10,192 bases of DNA, from UHGV virus genome UHGV-0119409; one strand, 5' to 3'. Positions 51 through 8,883 of this stretch are shown here, piece by piece. Within the stretch, counting starts at the first letter, position 1. Each line of letters starts with the position of its first letter. This DNA is from a virus. The translations under genes were made by a program, and so were the position numbers. Below the pieces are notes generated by a model. The model was not told where the DNA came from. It ran no database searches and saw nothing but the letters and a program-made list of their open reading frames with translations.

Positions 51-368
51 TCAATCTCGCTCACTGGCTGCCTCCTTTGCTGGGCTTTCTAACTTCTGAG
101 TGGTTGTATCAAACTCAAACAACTTAACCACGTCATCAAACAGGACATAATCGCCATCAGAATCTTCAGTCATGTCAGCGCCACAATCCTGACCGAACGA
201 GTCACAACCATCCATATCAAGCTCGTATCGCTTCAGGTTTGCGATATTTGATAAATTCAGCGCCAGTACAGCCAGGTCATAAACCTCGTCAGCGGTATAC
301 CCTGCACCATGTCCATACATTTCAATGCGGGATATGATTTCTTCTAACCGTTGTTTTGTGATTGTCAT
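51..368 (-). CDS. Hypothetical small acidic protein (105 aa)
   Basis: ORF in operon orientation. Its ATG (complement of 366-368) overlaps the upstream gene's TGA in an ATGA arrangement, suggesting translational coupling. Strongly acidic, Asp/Glu-rich C-terminal half. No family recognised. Confidence 0.5.
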   Translation of the reverse strand: MTITKQRLEEIISRIEMYGHGAGYTADEVYDLAVLALNLSNIANLKRYELDMDGCDSFGQDCGADMTEDSDGDYVLFDDVVKLFEFDTTTQKLESPAKEAASERD

Positions 369-928
369 TTTTGCTCACCACTCTGTTCTTCCAGAAAAAT
401 ACGCATAGCCTCAAGCATCTCTTCGGTGTCATACGGTGACAACTTGTCACGCAGGATGTGTTCAATGCTGTTAATGAACTTGCGGATTGCTTTGCGTTCA
501 ATTTCAGCCAGGAAAGCGTCGGTGGCTTGGGTGTCAACACGGATGCTGTCACGCAAGATGAAAAATGCATTGAGCATTCCAGTCTCTGGAACTTCATCCT
601 GATACTTCTCATACGCATCAAGAGCCTTCATCATCTCATGTCCGAATGGTTGAGGGTGCGCAGCCTTCAGCCTTGCATTCTCCGCCGCCAGCGCCGAAAA
701 CTTCTCGTGTGCCAACTTAACAGCCGCATCAGCCTGCTTAATTGACTCAATCGCTTTCTGCTGGTCTTCGGCCAGCGCATTAGCACGCACCAGTTGCACT
801 TCCAGTTGCGTTGCCAAATCGCTGATCAGCTTTGCCACACTGCGCATATCAACGGCACCACATTCTGCTTTCAGTTCCGAAGCCATCTCATGCCCTGCGG
901 CAACTAACCCTTTGATATTACTTTCCAT
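365..928 (-). CDS. Hypothetical protein, probable coiled-coil (187 aa)
   Basis: ATG at 928 preceded on the minus strand by GAGGG about 5 nt upstream. Ala/Leu/Glu/Lys-rich heptad-like stretch (e.g. ...KFSALAAENARLKAA...). No catalytic motif recognised. Confidence 0.55.
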   Translation of the reverse strand: MESNIKGLVAAGHEMASELKAECGAVDMRSVAKLISDLATQLEVQLVRANALAEDQQKAIESIKQADAAVKLAHEKFSALAAENARLKAAHPQPFGHEMMKALDAYEKYQDEVPETGMLNAFFILRDSIRVDTQATDAFLAEIERKAIRKFINSIEHILRDKLSPYDTEEMLEAMRIFLEEQSGEQK

Positions 929-989: not shown

Positions 990-1334
990 TCAGAACTCTT
1001 CGATGTTCCAGCCACCACCTGCTTTCTTTGGTTTAACCGTTACCCCGATGATTCGGAACGGATACTGATCTGCGGCGACTTTGGTTTTCACCCTGGCGTC
1101 GTCGGTCCAGAAACCTTTCACTTCGTGCAGTTCCATCTCTCCGGTGGCGAGCATCACAGCGAAATCTGGCGTATAGAACGTGTTGTCAGCTAACCGCAGC
1201 TTGATACCCTCGAATCGATACCAGGCGATTTCCCCTGCACGTTTACGCAGCTCAAGGTGCTGGCAATACGCAGATTCAGTTTTGTTCATCTGGCCTGTTT
1301 TGAGTCGACCAAGAGCCTGTATCTGTTTTCTCAT
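990..1334 (-). CDS. DUF1064-like phage protein, possible PD-(D/E)XK-type nuclease fold (114 aa)
   Basis: ATG at 1334 with GGAGG 7 nt upstream (inside operator palindrome 1338-1352). Motif pattern ...YTPDF...ELHEVKG... resembles the D...E.K signature of DUF1064 proteins typical of lambdoid nin-like regions; recalled from memory, not searched. Confidence 0.55.
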   Translation of the reverse strand: MRKQIQALGRLKTGQMNKTESAYCQHLELRKRAGEIAWYRFEGIKLRLADNTFYTPDFAVMLATGEMELHEVKGFWTDDARVKTKVAADQYPFRIIGVTVKPKKAGGGWNIEEF

Positions 1335-1337
1335 GAT

Positions 1338-1414
1338 TTACCTCCGAGGTAATTAAAAACCACATAAGACATGAAATCAATAGAGTTTATAATATTTTGT
1401 TACCTAACAGGTAA
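1338..1414 (-). promoter_or_regulatory. Operator-flanked sigma70-like promoter reading leftward into the DUF1064 gene
   Basis: Minus strand reads: palindrome TTACCTGTTAGGTAA (1400-1414), 19 bp, TTGATT (-35; 1375-1380), 17 bp, TTTAAT (-10; 1352-1357), palindrome TTACCTCGGAGGTAA (1338-1352), then ATG. Same architecture as the pL-like promoter at 4399-4475. Confidence 0.6.
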
Positions 1415-1451
1415 TTATCGAGGCGTAAAAAAATGCGCTATCGCGCTGGTA

Positions 1452-2228
1452 TTACTTGATAAATCCTGCCGCCTTTCCCCGCCTGTATTCCTCCATCAGC
1501 CACTGCGCCGGTGTTATTCCCCCAAGGGTGGCGGCGTTAGGCATGCACCCGAAACTTCGCCCTGGTGGATGGTAAACGTCTCTCCCTGTGTCCGGAGGTG
1601 TACTCATGGGCTCTGGCTTTGCCTGTATGCTGATCACCGGATCGGGTATCTGCTGTCCGGAAGCCACCTTTTTCGCCCAATCATCGAGCAGCCTGCGCGC
1701 GTGTTTCTCAACCTCACTCTCGCTAAGCTGGCGCTGATACATTGCACGACGGGTATCACATACGACCCAGTACATAACCGGATGCCGCCACGGGAATCTT
1801 TCGGGACCACCAGGATATAAACTTTTTTCCTTGCTGTACCGGTGAAACTCCGCCATCACATCGTCAATGGTGACGCCAAGAACCATCTTGCTGTCTTTGC
1901 ACCACTTGATGAATTGCCCTGGCGACGGCCAGAACGGAGATTCACTGGCGCGGGCGTGGCGCATACCAGCGTTAACCTGTTCCATTGTAGTGATCCCATT
2001 CTCCAGAAACGCAAGCATCCATTGCTTACGGAATTCATTAAGTTTGTTCTGCTCCCTTATGGTCGAAACGCTTGCAGGAAATGCAGCCTGTAACTGGACA
2101 AATAGTTCATTGAAAATTCTAGCAACCTGCTCCTTTTTGCCATTGCTGTCACGCCGCTCTTCATGCACAGCAACACCATGCTCACGTAAGCGATCGTACT
2201 CATTGAGAAGTTCTGGAGTTGATTTCAT
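1452..2228 (-). CDS. Replication protein P-like DnaB helicase loader (258 aa)
   Basis: Blocks ...AFPAS..., ...ENGITTMEQVNAGMR..., ...PSPGQF..., ...YPW... match what I recall of lambda P. ATG at 2228 with AAGGGG 6 nt upstream. Overlaps the end of the upstream O-like gene by 29 nt. Confidence 0.85.
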   Translation of the reverse strand: MKSTPELLNEYDRLREHGVAVHEERRDSNGKKEQVARIFNELFVQLQAAFPASVSTIREQNKLNEFRKQWMLAFLENGITTMEQVNAGMRHARASESPFWPSPGQFIKWCKDSKMVLGVTIDDVMAEFHRYSKEKSLYPGGPERFPWRHPVMYWVVCDTRRAMYQRQLSESEVEKHARRLLDDWAKKVASGQQIPDPVISIQAKPEPMSTPPDTGRDVYHPPGRSFGCMPNAATLGGITPAQWLMEEYRRGKAAGFIK

Positions 2229-3223: not shown

Positions 3224-3326
3224 TTTTTCCGCCCCTTTTTGTTATTGATATTGGCTATTTTGCACAATTGGAAAATTTGATCAACCAGATTTGGTTTTTT
3301 ATTACCTTTGAGGTACGAATAGATAT

Positions 3327-3350
3327 GAAAAGACCGCCGGGTGGCGGTCT
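3327..3350 (-). terminator. Intrinsic terminator downstream of the cro-like gene (tR1-like position)
   Basis: Minus strand reads AGACCGCC-ACCC-GGCGGTCT (8-bp GC-rich stem, 3331-3350) followed by TTTT (complement of 3327-3330). Confidence 0.5.
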
Positions 3351-3638: not shown

Positions 3639-3701
3639 TCACCCATAAGGTAACAAAAATCAAGGATAGTTACCTATGAGGTGCATTTACCTGTTGGGTA
3701 A
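3639..3701. promoter_or_regulatory. Divergent immunity control region with a tripartite operator (OR-like)
   Basis: Perfect palindrome ttacctgttgggtaa (3687-3701), and degenerate copies ttacctatgaggtgc (3670-3684) and tcacccataaggtaa (3639-3653), between the divergent cro-like and repressor genes. Exact -35/-10 elements not resolved. Confidence 0.6.
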
Positions 3702-3756: not shown

Positions 3757-4341
3757 ATGAAAAGTATCCAGGACGTCCGCAGGCAAAATCTCAACGACTT
3801 GATCGACCGTGAATTCAATGGTGTTCAGACGCGGATGGCAGAAAAACTTGGAACTCAGGCAAATCTGGTAAACCGCTGGGCTCTTGGCAAGAAGGTTATC
3901 GGCGACCAGGTTGCGCGAAAAATTGAAGCTGCCGCCAATAAACCACGTAACTGGCTTGATATCGATCGCTCGCTTTCTCAGGAAGGTTTTCAGCCTGTCG
4001 GCCCGAGCGATATAGGTCAGCTGGCGGCTCACAACCTGGAACGCTGGATGAGCGAAAGCCGCGACCTTTCAACACAGGGAAAACTTCACCGCGCATCCGG
4101 CGTCGCCCAGGTGACAATCAGCCGCCTGTTAAACAATGAGGTCAGCGTTTCCATTTCCACCCTGGAGAATGTTGCATCCGCATTCGGGCGTCACGGATAT
4201 GAACTACTGATTCACCCGCACGACCCTGCGACTATCAACTATGACCGCTCACGCTACGCATTGTTACCCGAAACCGAGAAAGCAAAGATCGAAAGTTACA
4301 TTGAATTTGTCATCAACCAGAACGAAAAAAGCAAACAATAA
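3757..4341 (+). CDS. Prophage repressor, CI-like by position, without a recognisable LexA/S24 autocleavage domain (194 aa)
   Basis: Divergent from the cro-like gene and followed by a terminator. Two HTH-like segments (...QTRMAEKLGTQANLVNRW... and ...ASGVAQVTISRLLNN...). No Ala-Gly cleavage site or Ser...Lys dyad pattern seen. Confidence 0.6.
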   Translation: MKSIQDVRRQNLNDLIDREFNGVQTRMAEKLGTQANLVNRWALGKKVIGDQVARKIEAAANKPRNWLDIDRSLSQEGFQPVGPSDIGQLAAHNLERWMSESRDLSTQGKLHRASGVAQVTISRLLNNEVSVSISTLENVASAFGRHGYELLIHPHDPATINYDRSRYALLPETEKAKIESYIEFVINQNEKSKQ

Positions 4342-4362
4342 AACTATATTTTTCAGTAAGTA

Positions 4363-4386
4363 AGCCGCCTCATGGCGGCTTTTTTA
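4363..4386 (+). terminator. Rho-independent terminator after the repressor gene
   Basis: agccgcc-tcat-ggcggct hairpin (4363-4380) followed by tttttt (4381-4386). Confidence 0.75.
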
Positions 4387-4398
4387 TTGCCAGATAGA

Positions 4399-4475
4399 TT
4401 ACCTTACGGGTAATTTTTTTAACTCATATCTATTGACACCAAACCAAATAAGCATAATTATTACCTCAACGGTAA
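4399..4475 (+). promoter_or_regulatory. pL-like early promoter flanked by two operator palindromes
   Basis: ttaccttacgggtaa (4399-4413), 19 bp, TTGACA (4433-4438), 16-17 bp, taatta (4455-4460), ttacctcaacggtaa (4461-4475), then GAGG and ATG at 4495. Confidence 0.7.
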
Positions 4476-4494
4476 CAGACCGAGGTAACAAGTT

Positions 4495-4649: not shown

Positions 4650-4949
4650 ATGAACGTTAATCAGCAGAAAAATCTTCAAAAAATCATGCTGGCATTCGAC
4701 AAGGACTACCGCCTGTCAGAACAGCTATATGACCGACAAGTTGAACTGATTGAGAGCATCCGACTTCATCAACTGTCCTCAACTTTCGACGTTGTAACAG
4801 GCAAAGGCGTTCGTCAGGAAGTGCTGGAGGCTGCTAAAGACAGCCCTGAGTTCGAAGAACTGATAGATTCCTACCGGCGCGAGGCAATGGCAATTATCGC
4901 CCGCTGGGATCTGGCGGATCGGATTGATGGGCAGAGGGAAGCGGCATGA
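4650..4949 (+). CDS. Hypothetical protein (99 aa) immediately upstream of the exo/RecT pair
   Basis: ATG at 4650 with GGGAGGG 6 nt upstream (preferred over the in-frame ATG at 4635). Stop overlaps the next gene's start (ATGATG). Confidence 0.6.
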   Translation: MNVNQQKNLQKIMLAFDKDYRLSEQLYDRQVELIESIRLHQLSSTFDVVTGKGVRQEVLEAAKDSPEFEELIDSYRREAMAIIARWDLADRIDGQREAA

Positions 4950-5845
4950 TGCAGAACGCTGGAATCATGGATAGAACAAAATACATCGGAGGAAGCGATG
5001 TTGCAGGGATTCTTGGAATTAGCCCATGGCGCACCCCGCTTGAGGTTTATCTGGATAAGGTCCAGCCACGTGTCAAACCAGTAGACCCAAGCAAGCAGAA
5101 AGTTTTCACGCGTGGCCAGCGTATGGAGCCATACGTAATAGACCTGCTTTCTGAGGAAACAGGGATGGAAATCGTTCATCGCGGAAACCGCTATATCCAC
5201 CGTGATTACGATTTTATTGCAGCTGAGATCGATGCAGAAGCAGCGTCAGGCGAGAACATTGAGATCAAAACAGTTAGTCCGTTCAAAGCCAAAGAATGGG
5301 GAGAAATCCAGACAGATGCAATTCCTGTGCATTACACGGCCCAGGCCATGCACGGGTTGATGGTTACAAACAAACAGGTATGCGTTTTCGGTGTGCTTAT
5401 CGGTGGCGACGACTTCCGAATCTATCGGGTTGAGCGTGATGAAGAAACTATCCAGGCGATCTTAGAAAAAGAAATCGCTTTCTGGGACCGAGTGAAAAAT
5501 CTTAACCCGCCGGAAGCTACCAGCGTAAGCGATGTATCGCTGATGTTTGAGAAAGATGCCGGGACAAGTATCGAGGCTGACGGAAAGGCACTCGCACTAT
5601 TCAACGATCTACGAGACATGAAGTCACGCAGAAAATCACTGGAAGAAGAAATAGCTATATCAGAAGAGAAGCTGAAGATGTACATGCAAGAGCACTCAGT
5701 CCTGACCCTGGACGGAAAGCCGCTCTGCACATGGAAATCTCAGATCAGCAACAGATTCGACCAGAAGCTATTCCAGTCAGTACACCCTGAGTTATTCGAA
5801 AAATTCAAAACAACAACGACACAACGCGTCTTCAGAATGAAGTAA
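4946..5845 (+). CDS. YqaJ-like recombination exonuclease (PD-(D/E)XK) with a C-terminal extension of about 100 aa (299 aa)
   Basis: N-terminal ...IGGSDVAGILGISPWRTPLEVY..., then ...QRMEPYV..., ...DAEAASGENIEIKT..., ...YTAQAMHG... fit the YqaJ/lambda-Exo-type nuclease motif order. Immediately upstream of RecT. Confidence 0.75.
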   Translation: MMQNAGIMDRTKYIGGSDVAGILGISPWRTPLEVYLDKVQPRVKPVDPSKQKVFTRGQRMEPYVIDLLSEETGMEIVHRGNRYIHRDYDFIAAEIDAEAASGENIEIKTVSPFKAKEWGEIQTDAIPVHYTAQAMHGLMVTNKQVCVFGVLIGGDDFRIYRVERDEETIQAILEKEIAFWDRVKNLNPPEATSVSDVSLMFEKDAGTSIEADGKALALFNDLRDMKSRRKSLEEEIAISEEKLKMYMQEHSVLTLDGKPLCTWKSQISNRFDQKLFQSVHPELFEKFKTTTTQRVFRMK

Positions 5846-5854
5846 GGAGAAAAA

Positions 5855-6877
5855 ATGTCTATCAATGCACTTAAGGCAGCGGCTACCGGTAACCAAGTTG
5901 CACATCATAATGAGAAACCAACAACTCTGGCCGGACTTCTGGCAGACCCAAAAATTAAAGCTCAGATGGCTTTGGCACTTCCAAAGCACATGACAGCAGA
6001 CCGTCTGGCGCGCATAGCAACCACAGAGATCCGAAAGGTTCCAAAACTTGCATCATGCGACCAAGCCAGCTTCCTGGGGGCAATTATGCAATGTGCCCAA
6101 TTGGGTCTTGAACCAGGAGGAGCTCTTGGACACGCTTACCTGATACCGTTCGACAAACGCCAGAAAGTAAATGGAAGATGGGAAACCGTATCTACAGAAG
6201 CACAGCTGATTATCGGCTATCGCGGAATGATTGACCTTGCCCGCCGCTCTGGGCAGATCCTGAGTATCTCGGCTCGTACCGTACATACAAACGACAAATT
6301 CAGCTACTCATACGGCCTGGAAGAAACGCTCGAGCATTTACCTTGCGAAACAGGTGACCGCGGAGAATTAACGCACGTTTACGCCGTTGCACGACTGAAA
6401 GATGGCGGAGTCCAATTTGAAGTTATGAGCCGGGCAGACATTGAGAAAGTTCGTGCACTGAGCAAAGCCGGTAGCAGTGGCCCATGGGTTGATCACTTCG
6501 ATGAGATGGCTAAAAAAACAGTAATTCGCCGACTATTCAAATATCTTCCTGTTTCTATTGAAATGCAGAAGGCTGTTGTTATGGATGAGCGCGCTGAAGC
6601 TGGACTTAGCCAAGATAACGCAGCTGTTATCACTGGTGAATATTCCGTAGTTGACGATGAGCGTCAACACCTGTCGCCAATTTCAGATTCAGAACGAGAA
6701 GAAGCTCGAGAATATATCATCGCGATACTTAATAGCCTGGATCCATCTGCTGAAGATGCAAAAACGATGTTCAAGCGCGCTGAAAATGAGATTAACACCA
6801 TGGCTGAAAAGCTCGGTGATGAATATCACCAAAAATTCATGATGACGCTTAACGATATGCGTCCAGAATTCGAGTAA
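5855..6877 (+). CDS. recT: RecT-family single-strand annealing recombinase (340 aa)
   Basis: AAGGAG 6 nt upstream of ATG at 5855. Sequence character (...GHAYLIPF..., ...IIGYRGMIDLARRSG...) and pairing with a YqaJ-type exonuclease match RecT/Redbeta-type SSAPs as I recall them. Confidence 0.8.
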   Translation: MSINALKAAATGNQVAHHNEKPTTLAGLLADPKIKAQMALALPKHMTADRLARIATTEIRKVPKLASCDQASFLGAIMQCAQLGLEPGGALGHAYLIPFDKRQKVNGRWETVSTEAQLIIGYRGMIDLARRSGQILSISARTVHTNDKFSYSYGLEETLEHLPCETGDRGELTHVYAVARLKDGGVQFEVMSRADIEKVRALSKAGSSGPWVDHFDEMAKKTVIRRLFKYLPVSIEMQKAVVMDERAEAGLSQDNAAVITGEYSVVDDERQHLSPISDSEREEAREYIIAILNSLDPSAEDAKTMFKRAENEINTMAEKLGDEYHQKFMMTLNDMRPEFE

Positions 6878-7284: not shown

Positions 7285-7584
7285 GTGAGAAAGTTAAGCC
7301 GACTTGAAAAATATCACATGAATAAGGTTTCAATGCGCAGTCCGTCAAAGATTGTCGCCGTTACTCCTGCGGCGATAGAGATCGAAAAACGCGCGATTGA
7401 AAGAGAGAAAAAAGGGCAGTTCCGCATTGCCGCTCACCTTTGGCTTCAGTGTATGGATGTTGCTTCTGGTGATGTTGAGCGTGCAAGGATCGCGGTTCGC
7501 AGGGACCAATGTATCACAAAAGGTAACGGCCTTCGCCGTGGAGACTATAGCGGTATAGGATGTTGCGGGGTGGTTTATGACTAA
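7285..7584 (+). CDS. Small ANR-like protein, possible regulator (99 aa from GTG at 7285; ATG alternatives at 7318 and 7333)
   Basis: Pattern ...KRAIEREKKGQFRIAAHLWLQCMDVASGDVERARIAVRRDQC... resembles the small ANR (Aar-like) family. Stop overlaps the methyltransferase start. Start codon uncertain. Confidence 0.45.
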   Translation: MRKLSRLEKYHMNKVSMRSPSKIVAVTPAAIEIEKRAIEREKKGQFRIAAHLWLQCMDVASGDVERARIAVRRDQCITKGNGLRRGDYSGIGCCGVVYD

Positions 7585-8227
7585 GAAATACACACTAATC
7601 TATGCAGATCCACCCTGGGTATACCGGGACAAAGCCGCAGATGGTAATCGCGGTGCCGGTTTTAAATATCCGGTTATGAGTGTGCTGGATATCTGCCGCC
7701 TTCCTGTGTGGGATTTGGCCGATGAAAACTGTCTGTTGGCCATGTGGTGGGTGCCAACACAACCACTCGAAGCACTAAAAGTTGTTGAAGCCTGGGGATT
7801 CCGTCTGATGACGATGAAGGGCTTCACGTGGATAAAATGTGGTAGTCGACAACCAGATAAACTGGTTATGGGTATGGGACACATGACTCGCGCCAATAGT
7901 GAAGATTGCCTGTTTGCAGTAAAGGGAAAACTACCTCCACGCATTAATGCAGGGATCGTTCAGTCATTTACCGCACCGCGGCTTGAGCATTCAAGAAAAC
8001 CAGATGTCGTTCGTGAAAAACTTGTGCAATTGTTAGGCGATGTTTCTCGCATTGAACTGTTCGCCCGCCAGACGTCTCATGGCTTCGATGTTTGGGGTAA
8101 TCAGTGCGAAGACCCGGCAGTGCAACTACACCCTGGATACGCGTTGGATATTGGCGGATTAACAAATGCATTCAGCAATGCTCCGGTGTCACCAATAGAC
8201 AACCAGGGGCGGGAGCGTGCAGCATGA
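7577..8227 (+). CDS. MT-A70-family DNA N6-adenine methyltransferase, orphan (216 aa)
   Basis: N-terminal ...[10 protein letters not shown]... with the DPPW catalytic motif, and overall size typical of phage MT-A70-like methylases. No adjacent restriction endonuclease candidate. Confidence 0.75.
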
Positions 8228-8883
8228 ACCTATATCAACGCATCAATGGCGCTGACTGGTGCAATATCTTCGTCGTCGGCGATCTGCATGGGTGCTACAC
8301 GCTGCTGATGAACGAACTCGACAAAGTTTCATTCGACCCGGCGCGCGATTTACTTATTTCCGTTGGTGACCTTGTTGACCGCGGCGCTGAAAACGTCGAA
8401 TGCCTGGATTTGATTACTATGCCGTGGTTCCGAGCTGTTCGTGGCAACCATGAGCAGATGATGCTGGATGCACTGGTCAACGGCGGAAGTTTCGGACATT
8501 GGATGTCAAACGGCGGTGGATGGTGGCACCAACTTGATTCTGAGCAGGATGTGCAACTCAAATACCTTCTGCCAAAGATTACCAACCTCCCGATGATTAT
8601 CGAACTGGTTACCGGCAATAAGAAGGTCGTCATCTGTCACGCAGACTACCCGCACAACGAATACGCATTCGATAAGCCAGTACCAGAAGAAATGGTGATA
8701 TGGAATCGTGAGCGGGTTAGCGACGCGCAGGACGGTATTGTCTCGGAGATAACCGGTGCCGATTTGTTCATCTTCGGTCATACGCCAGCACATCACCCAC
8801 TGGTGTATGCAAACCAGATGTACATCGACACCGGCGCAGTGTTCTGCGGAAATCTGACGCTTACCAAAGTCCAGGAAGGATAG
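8224..8883 (+). CDS. Ser/Thr protein phosphatase, lambda-PPase / PrpA-like metallophosphoesterase (219 aa)
   Basis: Motifs GDLHG, GDLVDRG and GNHE in canonical order. ATG at 8224 overlaps the methyltransferase stop (ATGA). The track ORF 8104-8883 includes an in-frame non-coding extension. Confidence 0.85.

Follow-up and report, generated by a model that had tools for sequence, protein, structure and literature searches.

A probable Rep-repressed early promoter between the P-like and DUF1064 genes of an epsilon15-type prophage

The DNA considered here is the virus genome UHGV-0119409, a stretch of 10,192 nucleotides which is referred to below as the window. A megablast search with the window retrieved epsilon15-like podoviruses of the genus Uetakevirus, with vB_EcoP_ZX5 being 99.2% identical, TL-2011b and phiV10 being 97% identical, and Tyrion, BUCT554, two Klebsiella phages and the Salmonella phages SPN1S and SPC32H being more distant relatives. 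Judged from its sequence, the window is an epsilon15/phiV10/ZX5-type Uetakevirus prophage, the regulation of which is not lambda-like. The region of interest is the gap between a P-like gene and a DUF1064 gene, a junction which is found in 529 of 5426 complete E. coli genomes (approximately 10%). The genes bearing on this gap are the following:

1452-2228, minus strand: lambda-P-like helicase-loader gene (Pfam Phage_lambda_P, E 5e-56; PHROG 109)
1452-1454, minus strand: stop codon of the P-like gene, 5 nt upstream of a hairpin
990-1334, minus strand: DUF1064 gene (Pfam DUF1064), first of its unit, with the ATG at 1334-1332
51-928, minus strand: downstream genes of the DUF1064 unit (from the list of open reading frames)
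365-928, minus strand: open reading frame of a 187-aa Eae-like protein (PHROG of unknown function)
51-368, minus strand: open reading frame of a 105-aa protein (PHROG of unknown function)
3757-4341, plus strand: Rep, 194 aa, presumed binder of the operators described below (full-length match to SPC32H Rep)

The DUF1064 protein matches PHROG 190, ‘Holliday junction resolvase’, with an E value of 7e-43, and is a putative Holliday-junction resolvase-type nuclease. The position of the 187-aa open reading frame is annotated as eae-like in phiV10 and as EaE-like in ZX5, and in complete relatives the unit extends to a PHROG-536 ‘transcriptional regulator’, beyond which come a terminator and the terminase genes. 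The gap itself contains the features listed here, where the name P3 is our own and denotes the element at 1338-1414:

1446-1435, minus strand: hairpin GCGC-GATA-GCGC
1433-1427, minus strand: run of seven T’s following one A, 1 nt past the stem
1414-1400, minus-strand reading: predicted distal Rep operator, TTACCTGTTAGGTAA, an exact palindrome
1400-1414, listed without strand: the distal Rep operator as TTACCTAACAGGTAA, approximately -69 to -55 from the predicted start
1381-1399, minus strand: A/T-rich tract of 19 nt, CAAAATATTATAAACTCTA, between the distal operator and the -35-like hexamer
1380-1375, minus strand: -35-like hexamer TTGATT, inside a conserved CTATTGA block
1374-1358, minus strand: spacer of 17 nt, constant in length in 109 of 109 cassettes
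1357-1352, minus strand: -10-like hexamer TTTAAT, abutting the proximal operator
1352-1338, minus-strand reading: predicted proximal Rep operator, TTACCTCGGAGGTAA, an exact palindrome
1338-1352, listed without strand: the proximal Rep operator as TTACCTCCGAGGTAA, approximately -7 to +8
1345-1341, minus strand: Shine-Dalgarno sequence GGAGG of the DUF1064 gene, inside the proximal operator
1366-1393, plus strand: competing promoter-like match AAGACA-16-TATAAT (10/12, sigma-70 scan)

The hairpin consists of a stem of four G-C pairs closed by a GATA loop, which is short of the at least five pairs applied as a criterion for a terminator, and it was not called by the terminator scan because of this stem length. 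Its minimum free energy is -8.4 kcal/mol, as against -15.0 kcal/mol for the terminator after cro (3331-3350) and -18.7 kcal/mol for that after rep (4362-4381). The position of its U-run, its placement after a stop codon and its conservation are those of an intrinsic terminator, a GCGC-loop-GCGC hairpin with a T7 run recurring with differing loops in each of the eight BLAST-found relatives, and a putative rho-independent terminator is annotated at the same place in the phiV10 record. Read-through from pR is probably reduced by the hairpin, not eliminated. Given a terminator of this weakness, pR read-through might supply the nin-like genes without P3.

A 15-bp palindrome, TTACC-N5-GGTAA, is reproduced without mismatch at 1338-1352 and 1400-1414; the window contains five such exact copies (starting at 1338, 1400, 3687, 4399 and 4461), as compared to 0.00 in 200 dinucleotide-preserving shuffles. 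When up to two mismatches were allowed, ten matches were obtained where 2.9 +/- 1.7 were expected, and inexact copies are also located at 3639 and 3670, in the rep/cro intergenic region, and at 3302, after the cro terminator. The OR region (3639, 3670 and 3687) is the sole part of the window that resembles a tripartite array, and the operator-like site at 3302-3316 is single and without evident promoter. The two operators of the gap start 62 bp apart, which leaves 47 bp between them, and they are intergenic, palindromic and paired around the -35 and -10 elements. They resemble Uetakevirus Rep operators in their palindromic sequence, in having a cognate Rep, and in combining fixed half-sites with a drifting centre.

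The -35-like TTGATT matches four of six consensus positions and is followed by a 17-nt spacer, in agreement with the minimum of 4/6 matches and the 16-18 nt of a sigma-70 promoter. The -10-like TTTAAT matches five of six and departs from the sigma-70 pattern, in which A is required at position 2 and T at position 6, by carrying a T at position 2; for this reason TTGATT-17-TTTAAT on the minus strand was not called by the sigma-70 scan. Functional -10 hexamers with T at position 2 exist, the -10 of the E. coli trp promoter usually being written TTAACT, and the substitution is a weakness of P3 rather than grounds for its exclusion. The A/T-rich tract, in which GGTAA(C/T)AAAATAT is kept across lineages, would by its position represent an UP element. 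The predicted start of P3 lies near G1345 and would generate an unusually short leader of approximately 11 nt, opening with the Shine-Dalgarno sequence. An extended -10 by way of the conserved TGTGG in the spacer was considered and rejected, the TG being out of register with every plausible -10, as judged by hand from the alignments. A search of positions 1100-1700 against Rfam returned nothing but a chance sub-threshold snoRNA match (E 0.27), on which ground a known RNA element in this interval was ruled out.

An internal comparator for P3 is provided by pL, besides which no candidate promoter was found for the leftward operon:

4399-4475, plus strand: pL cassette (operator, 19 nt, TTGACA, 17 nt, AATTAT/operator)
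4399-4413 and 4461-4475: pL operators, both exact palindromes
4433-4461, plus strand: TTGACA-17-AATTAT of pL (sigma-70 scan)

Like P3, pL is preceded by a terminator, its operator starts are 62 bp apart, and its -10 overlaps the second operator by one base, a T that closes the hexamer and opens the operator in both promoters. In both, the distance from the first base of the distal operator to that of the -35 amounts to 34 nt, and the block TCTATTGA occurs at the -35 at the same offset. Outside the half-sites, 23 of 57 positions are alike between P3 and pL, as compared to 14.5 +/- 3.4 for random windows (P = 0.011). Unlike P3, pL carries the consensus -35 TTGACA, an A at position 2 of its -10 (AATTAT) and a longer leader, and in SPN1S and epsilon15 it possesses a third operator. 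The initial annotation had placed a weak hairpin and T7 run after the P stop codon, a promoter having the same operator/-35/17 bp/-10/operator layout as pL, and a second operator overlapping the Shine-Dalgarno sequence of the DUF1064 gene. The hairpin was recovered within a few bases of where it had been put, the layout agreed with pL in its 62- and 34-nt offsets, and GGAGG (1345-1341) indeed falls inside 1352-1338. The gap elements are confirmed to be real and highly non-random.

Conservation was examined in a set of phages collected by BLAST via the flanking genes, comprising phiV10, ZX5, SPN1S, SPC32H, epsilon15, Tyrion, BUCT554 and ST512-KPC3phi13.3, the hosts of which are E. coli, Salmonella, Enterobacter and Klebsiella. 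All eight contain an exact operator pair at 62-bp spacing, located immediately downstream of the last replication gene (at 2642 and 2704 in the SPC32H locus), and in each this pair surrounds TTGAnn, a 17-nt spacer and a hexamer rich in A/T. The genes on either side are exchanged between phages: upstream of the cassette lies a P-like gene or a DnaT-type gene alone, and downstream DUF1064, a RuvC-like resolvase gene or another gene, with RuvC-like resolvase genes standing in place of DUF1064 in epsilon15 and Tyrion. Considering that DUF1064 belongs to PHROG 190, the first gene of the unit would encode a resolvase-type nuclease in all eight BLAST-found phages.

A first scan of viral contigs was queried with the operator pair itself, so that half-site conservation in its output is circular. 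A second scan therefore excluded the operators from its anchor, which consisted of the terminator tail and CTATTGA; for the conservation of these two elements, reliance is placed on the BLAST-found phages and on the operator-anchored set. The second scan yielded 125 cassettes, being metagenomic or prophage copies, of which 109 are distinct and none contains an indel. The distal half-sites are exact in 109 of these 109, with 36 forms of the centre, and the proximal half-sites in 107, with 17 forms of the centre; the mean information of the centres is 0.54 bits (distal) and 1.12 bits (proximal), as against 2.0 bits for the half-sites. The proximal centre is less free because the Shine-Dalgarno sequence is also encoded there. 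Close relationship among many of the 109 cassettes means that shared ancestry accounts for part of their conservation, for which the variable centres, set against the fixed half-sites, act as an internal control. Fixed half-sites with variable centres are what would be expected of a protein-binding palindrome whose centre is not contacted, and the contrast between the two cannot be put down to low divergence alone.

Every cassette, both in the BLAST-found set (eight phages) and in the set from the operator-pair scan, has TTGAnn at the same offset, and a divergent lineage with unrelated spacer sequence presents TTGAAA-17-CAGTAT in the same frame. Among the 109 cassettes, the -10 takes the forms TTTAAT (65), TTAAAT (37), TTATAT (3) and ATAAAT (2). 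When strict sigma-70 criteria are applied, 42 of the 109 pass, in an 18-nt register as TTGAAA-18-TAAATT, none of them being of the E. coli type. Between lineages, the interval from the proximal operator to the ATG ranges from 5 to 21 nt, yet the operator remains fixed relative to the -10, which argues that this operator is placed relative to the promoter and not to the ribosome-binding site.

Part of this arrangement is on record for the type phage, the RefSeq entry of epsilon15 (NC_004775.2) listing ‘protein_bind: repressor / lysogeny’ at six positions:

12-27: repressor site just before terS
2931-2947: repressor site before gp3
32479-32494, 32554-32570 and 32616-32632: repressor sites at pL
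35906-35922: repressor site TTACCAAAAGGGTAA, between gp42 and gp43

It is the site at 35906-35922 that is exactly homologous to the window’s distal operator, and it follows the same hairpin and T7 run. As in the window, it is located between a replication gene and a resolvase gene, and a second operator lies 62 bp downstream, with TTGAAA-17-TTAAAT in between. The epsilon15 locus differs in having a DnaT-like upstream gene and no P gene, and a RuvC-like downstream gene in place of DUF1064, and in the epsilon15 record the distal site is marked alone, without proximal operator or promoter. Neither the proximal operator nor a promoter at the P3 position is annotated in the records of phiV10, SPN1S, SPC32H, Tyrion, ZX5, BUCT554 or epsilon15, and the ZX5 paper gives four predicted promoters and defines no operators. 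A full-text search of the literature retrieved nothing specific on the motif or on operators in Uetakevirus, nor any transcript, binding or other experiment on P3, the publications of Kropinski 2007, Kim & Ryu 2013 and Kim et al. 2016 being outside this search. Rep sites are present in the family at pL, at pR, at the P3 site, before terS and before gp3, thus in at least five control regions, and their distribution over several control regions, including the P3 locus, is already known from public annotation.

The protein presumed to bind these sites aligns over its full length with the Rep of SPC32H (PDB 5D50; E 3.5e-42), and two HTH domains and no S24 peptidase domain were identified in it by Pfam. 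Its closest known counterpart is the SPC32H Rep/Ant system (PDB 5D50 and 5D4Z), in which the repressor is a full-length homologue and the phage carries the same cassette; the antirepressor gene and its LexA box fall outside the window. In PMC9638917, which cites the primary work, Rep is described as a tetramer which binds DNA by means of DNA-binding pairs formed across dimers, which is split by the antirepressor and which is unable to cleave itself, and PMC9986798 describes two pairs of middle dimerisation domains approximately 100 Å apart and a tetramerisation domain of the looping type. Reps of 42-99% identity all carry an unchanged NLVNRW motif in their N-terminal DNA-binding region, which fits with all of these Reps using the same half-sites. 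The cassette is retained in phages the Rep of which is only 41-47% identical to that of the window. A covariation test employing a heteroimmune relative, where the P3 operators should have altered in step with OL/OR, was tried and set aside, all Rep homologues found, the most distant at 41% identity, having retained the TTACC/GGTAA half-sites. We infer that Rep binds both sites of the gap.

Taken together, positions 1338-1451 probably constitute the control region of P3 as a Rep-repressed secondary early promoter serving the resolvase/nin-like unit. The weak terminator after the P gene would partly insulate this downstream unit from pR transcription, and the sigma-70-type TTGATT-17-TTTAAT would drive DUF1064 and the nin-like genes that follow. 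Rep bound to the proximal operator (approximately -7 to +8) would block RNA polymerase directly, and the distal operator, 62 bp or approximately six helical turns upstream, would present itself on the same face of the DNA. One Rep tetramer, or two interacting ones, would probably bridge both operators and trap the promoter in a small loop, as at pL; a tetramer with two DNA-binding units bridging both sites may thus achieve higher occupancy and a cooperative, loop-stabilised repression. A 62-bp loop joined by DNA-binding units approximately 100 Å apart requires sharp bending of the DNA. Inactivation of Rep by the antirepressor would open pL, pR and P3 together. In a lysogen, an unrepressed P3 would presumably be harmful. 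The first pL genes belong to PHROGs 898 and 856, of unknown function, and the PHROG search recognised no N-like function among them, so that a promoter positioned after a terminator may act as a simple substitute for antitermination. In this account we infer the looping, the activity and direction of the promoter, and the efficiency of the terminator.

The operators could also bind Rep with no significant promoter between them, forming a roadblock behind a leaky terminator that would halt leftover rightward transcription in lysogens, while the nin-like genes are expressed by pR read-through; alternatively, they could be auxiliary sites that raise the local concentration of Rep or loop to OR/OL 2.2-3.1 kb away. 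The poor -10, uncalled by the scan, the weak terminator, and the single operator-like site without evident promoter after the cro terminator (3302-3316) would suit such sites, and repressors with dispersed sites are known, such as that acting at the stoperators of mycobacteriophage L5 and the C1 protein of P1 with its operators. However, TTGAnn and the 17-nt spacing recur in cassettes that were found without these anchors and match pL, the divergent lineage, whose -10 (CAGTAT) is better, has preserved the frame, and the proximal operator tracks the -10 and not the start codon. A roadblock would, moreover, have no need for the helical phase of the two sites or for their fixed 47-bp interval, and we consider these two variants, taken jointly, unlikely. 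That the resemblance to pL is nothing but a functionless chance arrangement of A/T-rich sequence and palindromes is barely conceivable: it could draw on the weak -10 and the weak hairpin and on nothing else, and it is effectively refuted by exact operators of which none is expected by chance, and by invariant half-sites and fixed spacing in 109 distinct cassettes and four host genera.

The direction of transcription has to be weighed separately for the E. coli lineage, in which the active promoter could be the reverse one, producing a Rep-controlled antisense RNA to the 3’ end of P either alone or in competition for the same 47 bp. The plus-strand match at 1366-1393 points into the P gene and has a predicted start near 1400, which falls on the distal operator; of all matches in the early region it comes closest to the consensus (10/12, with A2 and T6), and AAGACA-16-TAGAAT/TATAAT is present in 55 of the 109 distinct cassettes. 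These cassettes are, however, exclusively of the E. coli type, having the spacer TTGATTTC(A/G)TGTCTT, and are closely related, while the Salmonella, Klebsiella and Enterobacter types lack the match and retain the forward elements. Furthermore, the scan gave 6 matches in 3.8 kb as against 5.5 by chance, such a match being cheaply obtained in an A/T-rich spacer, and the match has no downstream open reading frame or terminator and no support from Rfam. Considering its confinement to the E. coli lineage, a plus-strand promoter was ruled out as the main feature of the gap and is kept as a minor and distinctly improbable rival.

The lambda operators OL and OR resemble the window in that a repressor blocks early promoters and binds separated sites cooperatively. 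In lambda, three tandem 17-bp operators are present per promoter, with dimers pairing side by side, only pL and pR (plus pRM) are under CI control, and terminators are read through in an N-dependent manner. The window differs in that two operators 62 bp apart flank the promoter, and these do not form a tripartite operator. Promoter-enclosing repression loops, in which phased operator pairs are bridged by a tetramer, are known from lac O1-O3 and gal OE-OI, and one immunity repressor with many dispersed operators gates several transcription units in P1 (C1) and in mycobacteriophage L5 (gp71). The proteins of these four systems are unrelated to Rep, and the loop proposed for the window would be unusually short, with 47 bp between sites. 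The stoperators of L5 are asymmetric, orientation-dependent, located inside transcription units and not tied to promoters, whereas the sites of the window are palindromic, intergenic and promoter-linked and are thus not of the L5 type.

The initial annotation had taken P3 for an unexpected third repressor-controlled promoter by comparison with lambda, had proposed that DUF1064 and the genes of the 187-aa and 105-aa proteins form a separate unit gated by the repressor, and had called for a comparison with related prophages. The comparison bore out the geometry in eight phages and 109 distinct cassettes, and it lends the separate unit strong support as a prediction from sequence. The terms ‘unexpected’ and ‘third’ and the choice of lambda as comparator have to be abandoned, as the window derives from an epsilon15-like phage, Rep sites occur family-wide and the homologous site is annotated. 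The frame is thereby corrected to that of an epsilon15/phiV10-type prophage, not a lambda variant, with operators in several control regions and not in two; as is already known from the annotation of the homologous site in the type phage, P3 is ordinary for the epsilon15/phiV10 family.

The P/DUF1064 gap can now be annotated with a terminator, two Rep operators and a putative promoter, and the cassette represents a mosaic joint at which replication and recombination modules are exchanged between phages. A wider reading, which we put forward tentatively and hold to be possible rather than likely, is that Uetakeviruses lack lambda-style antitermination and are instead organised in terminator-insulated units (cro; replication; the resolvase/nin-like genes and the regulator; the late genes), most of which have their own Rep operator or operators, with Rep forming micro-loops and P3 acting as a delayed-early switch. 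If this were true, a single Rep tetramer would clamp the promoter in a 62-bp micro-loop both at pL and at P3, and P3 would deliver the PHROG-536 regulator needed at the operator-bearing extended -10 promoter before terS. The residual interest of the locus resides in how terminators and operators are arranged together across the entire early and late region, and in the fixed 62-bp operator pair, the constancy of which around a promoter offers a testable geometry for a tetrameric Rep of the SPC32H type on DNA.

The operator predicted for the SPC32H-type repressor Rep, TTACC-N5-GGTAA, recurs well beyond the putative secondary early promoter cassette P3 and the pL cassette. Of the 45 related loci whose sequence extends far enough downstream of P3, 44 carry one or more exact Rep operators over 2.5 kb beyond the cassette on that side, and in most of the contexts listed this distant operator directly precedes the terminase small-subunit gene. 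There, the operator and a conserved extended -10-like motif, TGnTAnTAT, are usually fused, and a GCCGCC/GGCGGC terminator is often located upstream. Further downstream, past the terminase genes, another conserved exact operator, with the sequence TTACCTGAAAGGTAA or TTACCTAAAAGGTAA, adjoins a GTCAA(T/C) motif. Representative positions, all outside the window, are:

ZX5 (L006), 96-128: operator region before the terminase small-subunit gene
Related locus L008, 120-134: operator region before the same gene
Epsilon15 (L193, NC_004775.2), 12-27: operator region before the same gene, marked as repressor-binding in the epsilon15 record
Epsilon15, 2931-2947: repressor site that the record places ahead of gp3 and that overlaps an IHF site, a possible counterpart of the operator next to GTCAA(T/C)
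L024, L140 and L152, among other loci, roughly 5.9-10.1 kb downstream of P3: TTACCTGAAAGGTAA/TTACCTAAAAGGTAA operator with GTCAA(T/C)

Judging from this arrangement, the operator and TGnTAnTAT motif ahead of the terminase small-subunit gene look like a Rep-gated late promoter.

Within the window, additional sites and genes were located as follows:

1366-1393, plus strand: promoter-like match AAGACA-16-TATAAT on the strand opposite P3, overlapping P3 back to back
2655-2673 and 2864-2882: near-identical 19-bp palindromes GTAACGCTGTTGGCGTTAC and GTAACGCTGCCAGCGTTAC, spaced by 209 bp, within the DnaT-like initiator gene
3302-3316: operator-like site TTACCTTTGAGGTAC, with one mismatch, between a terminator (3331-3350, minus strand) and the 70-aa gene
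4478-4492: right operator half-site only (…CCGAGGTAA), 17 bp past the proximal pL operator
7285-7584: PerC-like activator, leftward operon
7577-8227: MT-A70-type adenine methyltransferase, leftward operon
8224-8883: calcineurin-like phosphoesterase, leftward operon

The single operator-like site at 3302-3316 comes right after the strong terminator of the cro-like gene. It is kept in phiV10, ZX5 and Tyrion, is present in a variant form in BUCT554, and has no counterpart in epsilon15 and SPN1S; a scan of the collection yielded 0.37 sites per locus in the matching position bin, and no convincing promoter was seen adjoining the site. The first gene of the pL operon also uses the right half-site as its Shine-Dalgarno sequence, just as GGAGGTAA doubles as a Shine-Dalgarno sequence at P3. 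SPN1S and epsilon15 carry a full third pL operator positioned further downstream.

The promoter-like match opposite P3 is conserved among E. coli-type cassettes only. In BLAST alignments, similarity to SPN1S-type Salmonella phages covers the DUF1064 gene and the P3 cassette and ends at 1439, in the terminator, while that to Tyrion begins at 1331, at the ATG, and extends upstream through P. These end points mark the P3 cassette as a mosaic joint: different modules are joined at this conserved regulatory segment.

In the DnaT-like gene, a CTT-repeat stretch at about 2625-2640 encodes a glutamate run, and the first 19-bp palindrome occurs a short way downstream of it. The pair represents candidate origin sequences, by analogy with the ori of lambda, which lies inside O. 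In the leftward operon, the exonuclease and RecT are encoded by separate genes (4946-5845, 5855-6877), as opposed to the single fused ORF of the phiV10 annotation, and the three genes spanning 7285-8883 adjoin the integrase.

Tandem arrays of TTACC-N5-GGTAA were also encountered in contigs where no P3 or pL features were found (L017, 3828-3905; L058, 7274-7351; also L028, L099 and L110), the L058 array comprising at least seven copies of GTTACCGTTTTGGTAAC. Judging from these contigs, the TTACC/GGTAA half-site pair appears to be in use beyond the P3 and pL cassettes too.
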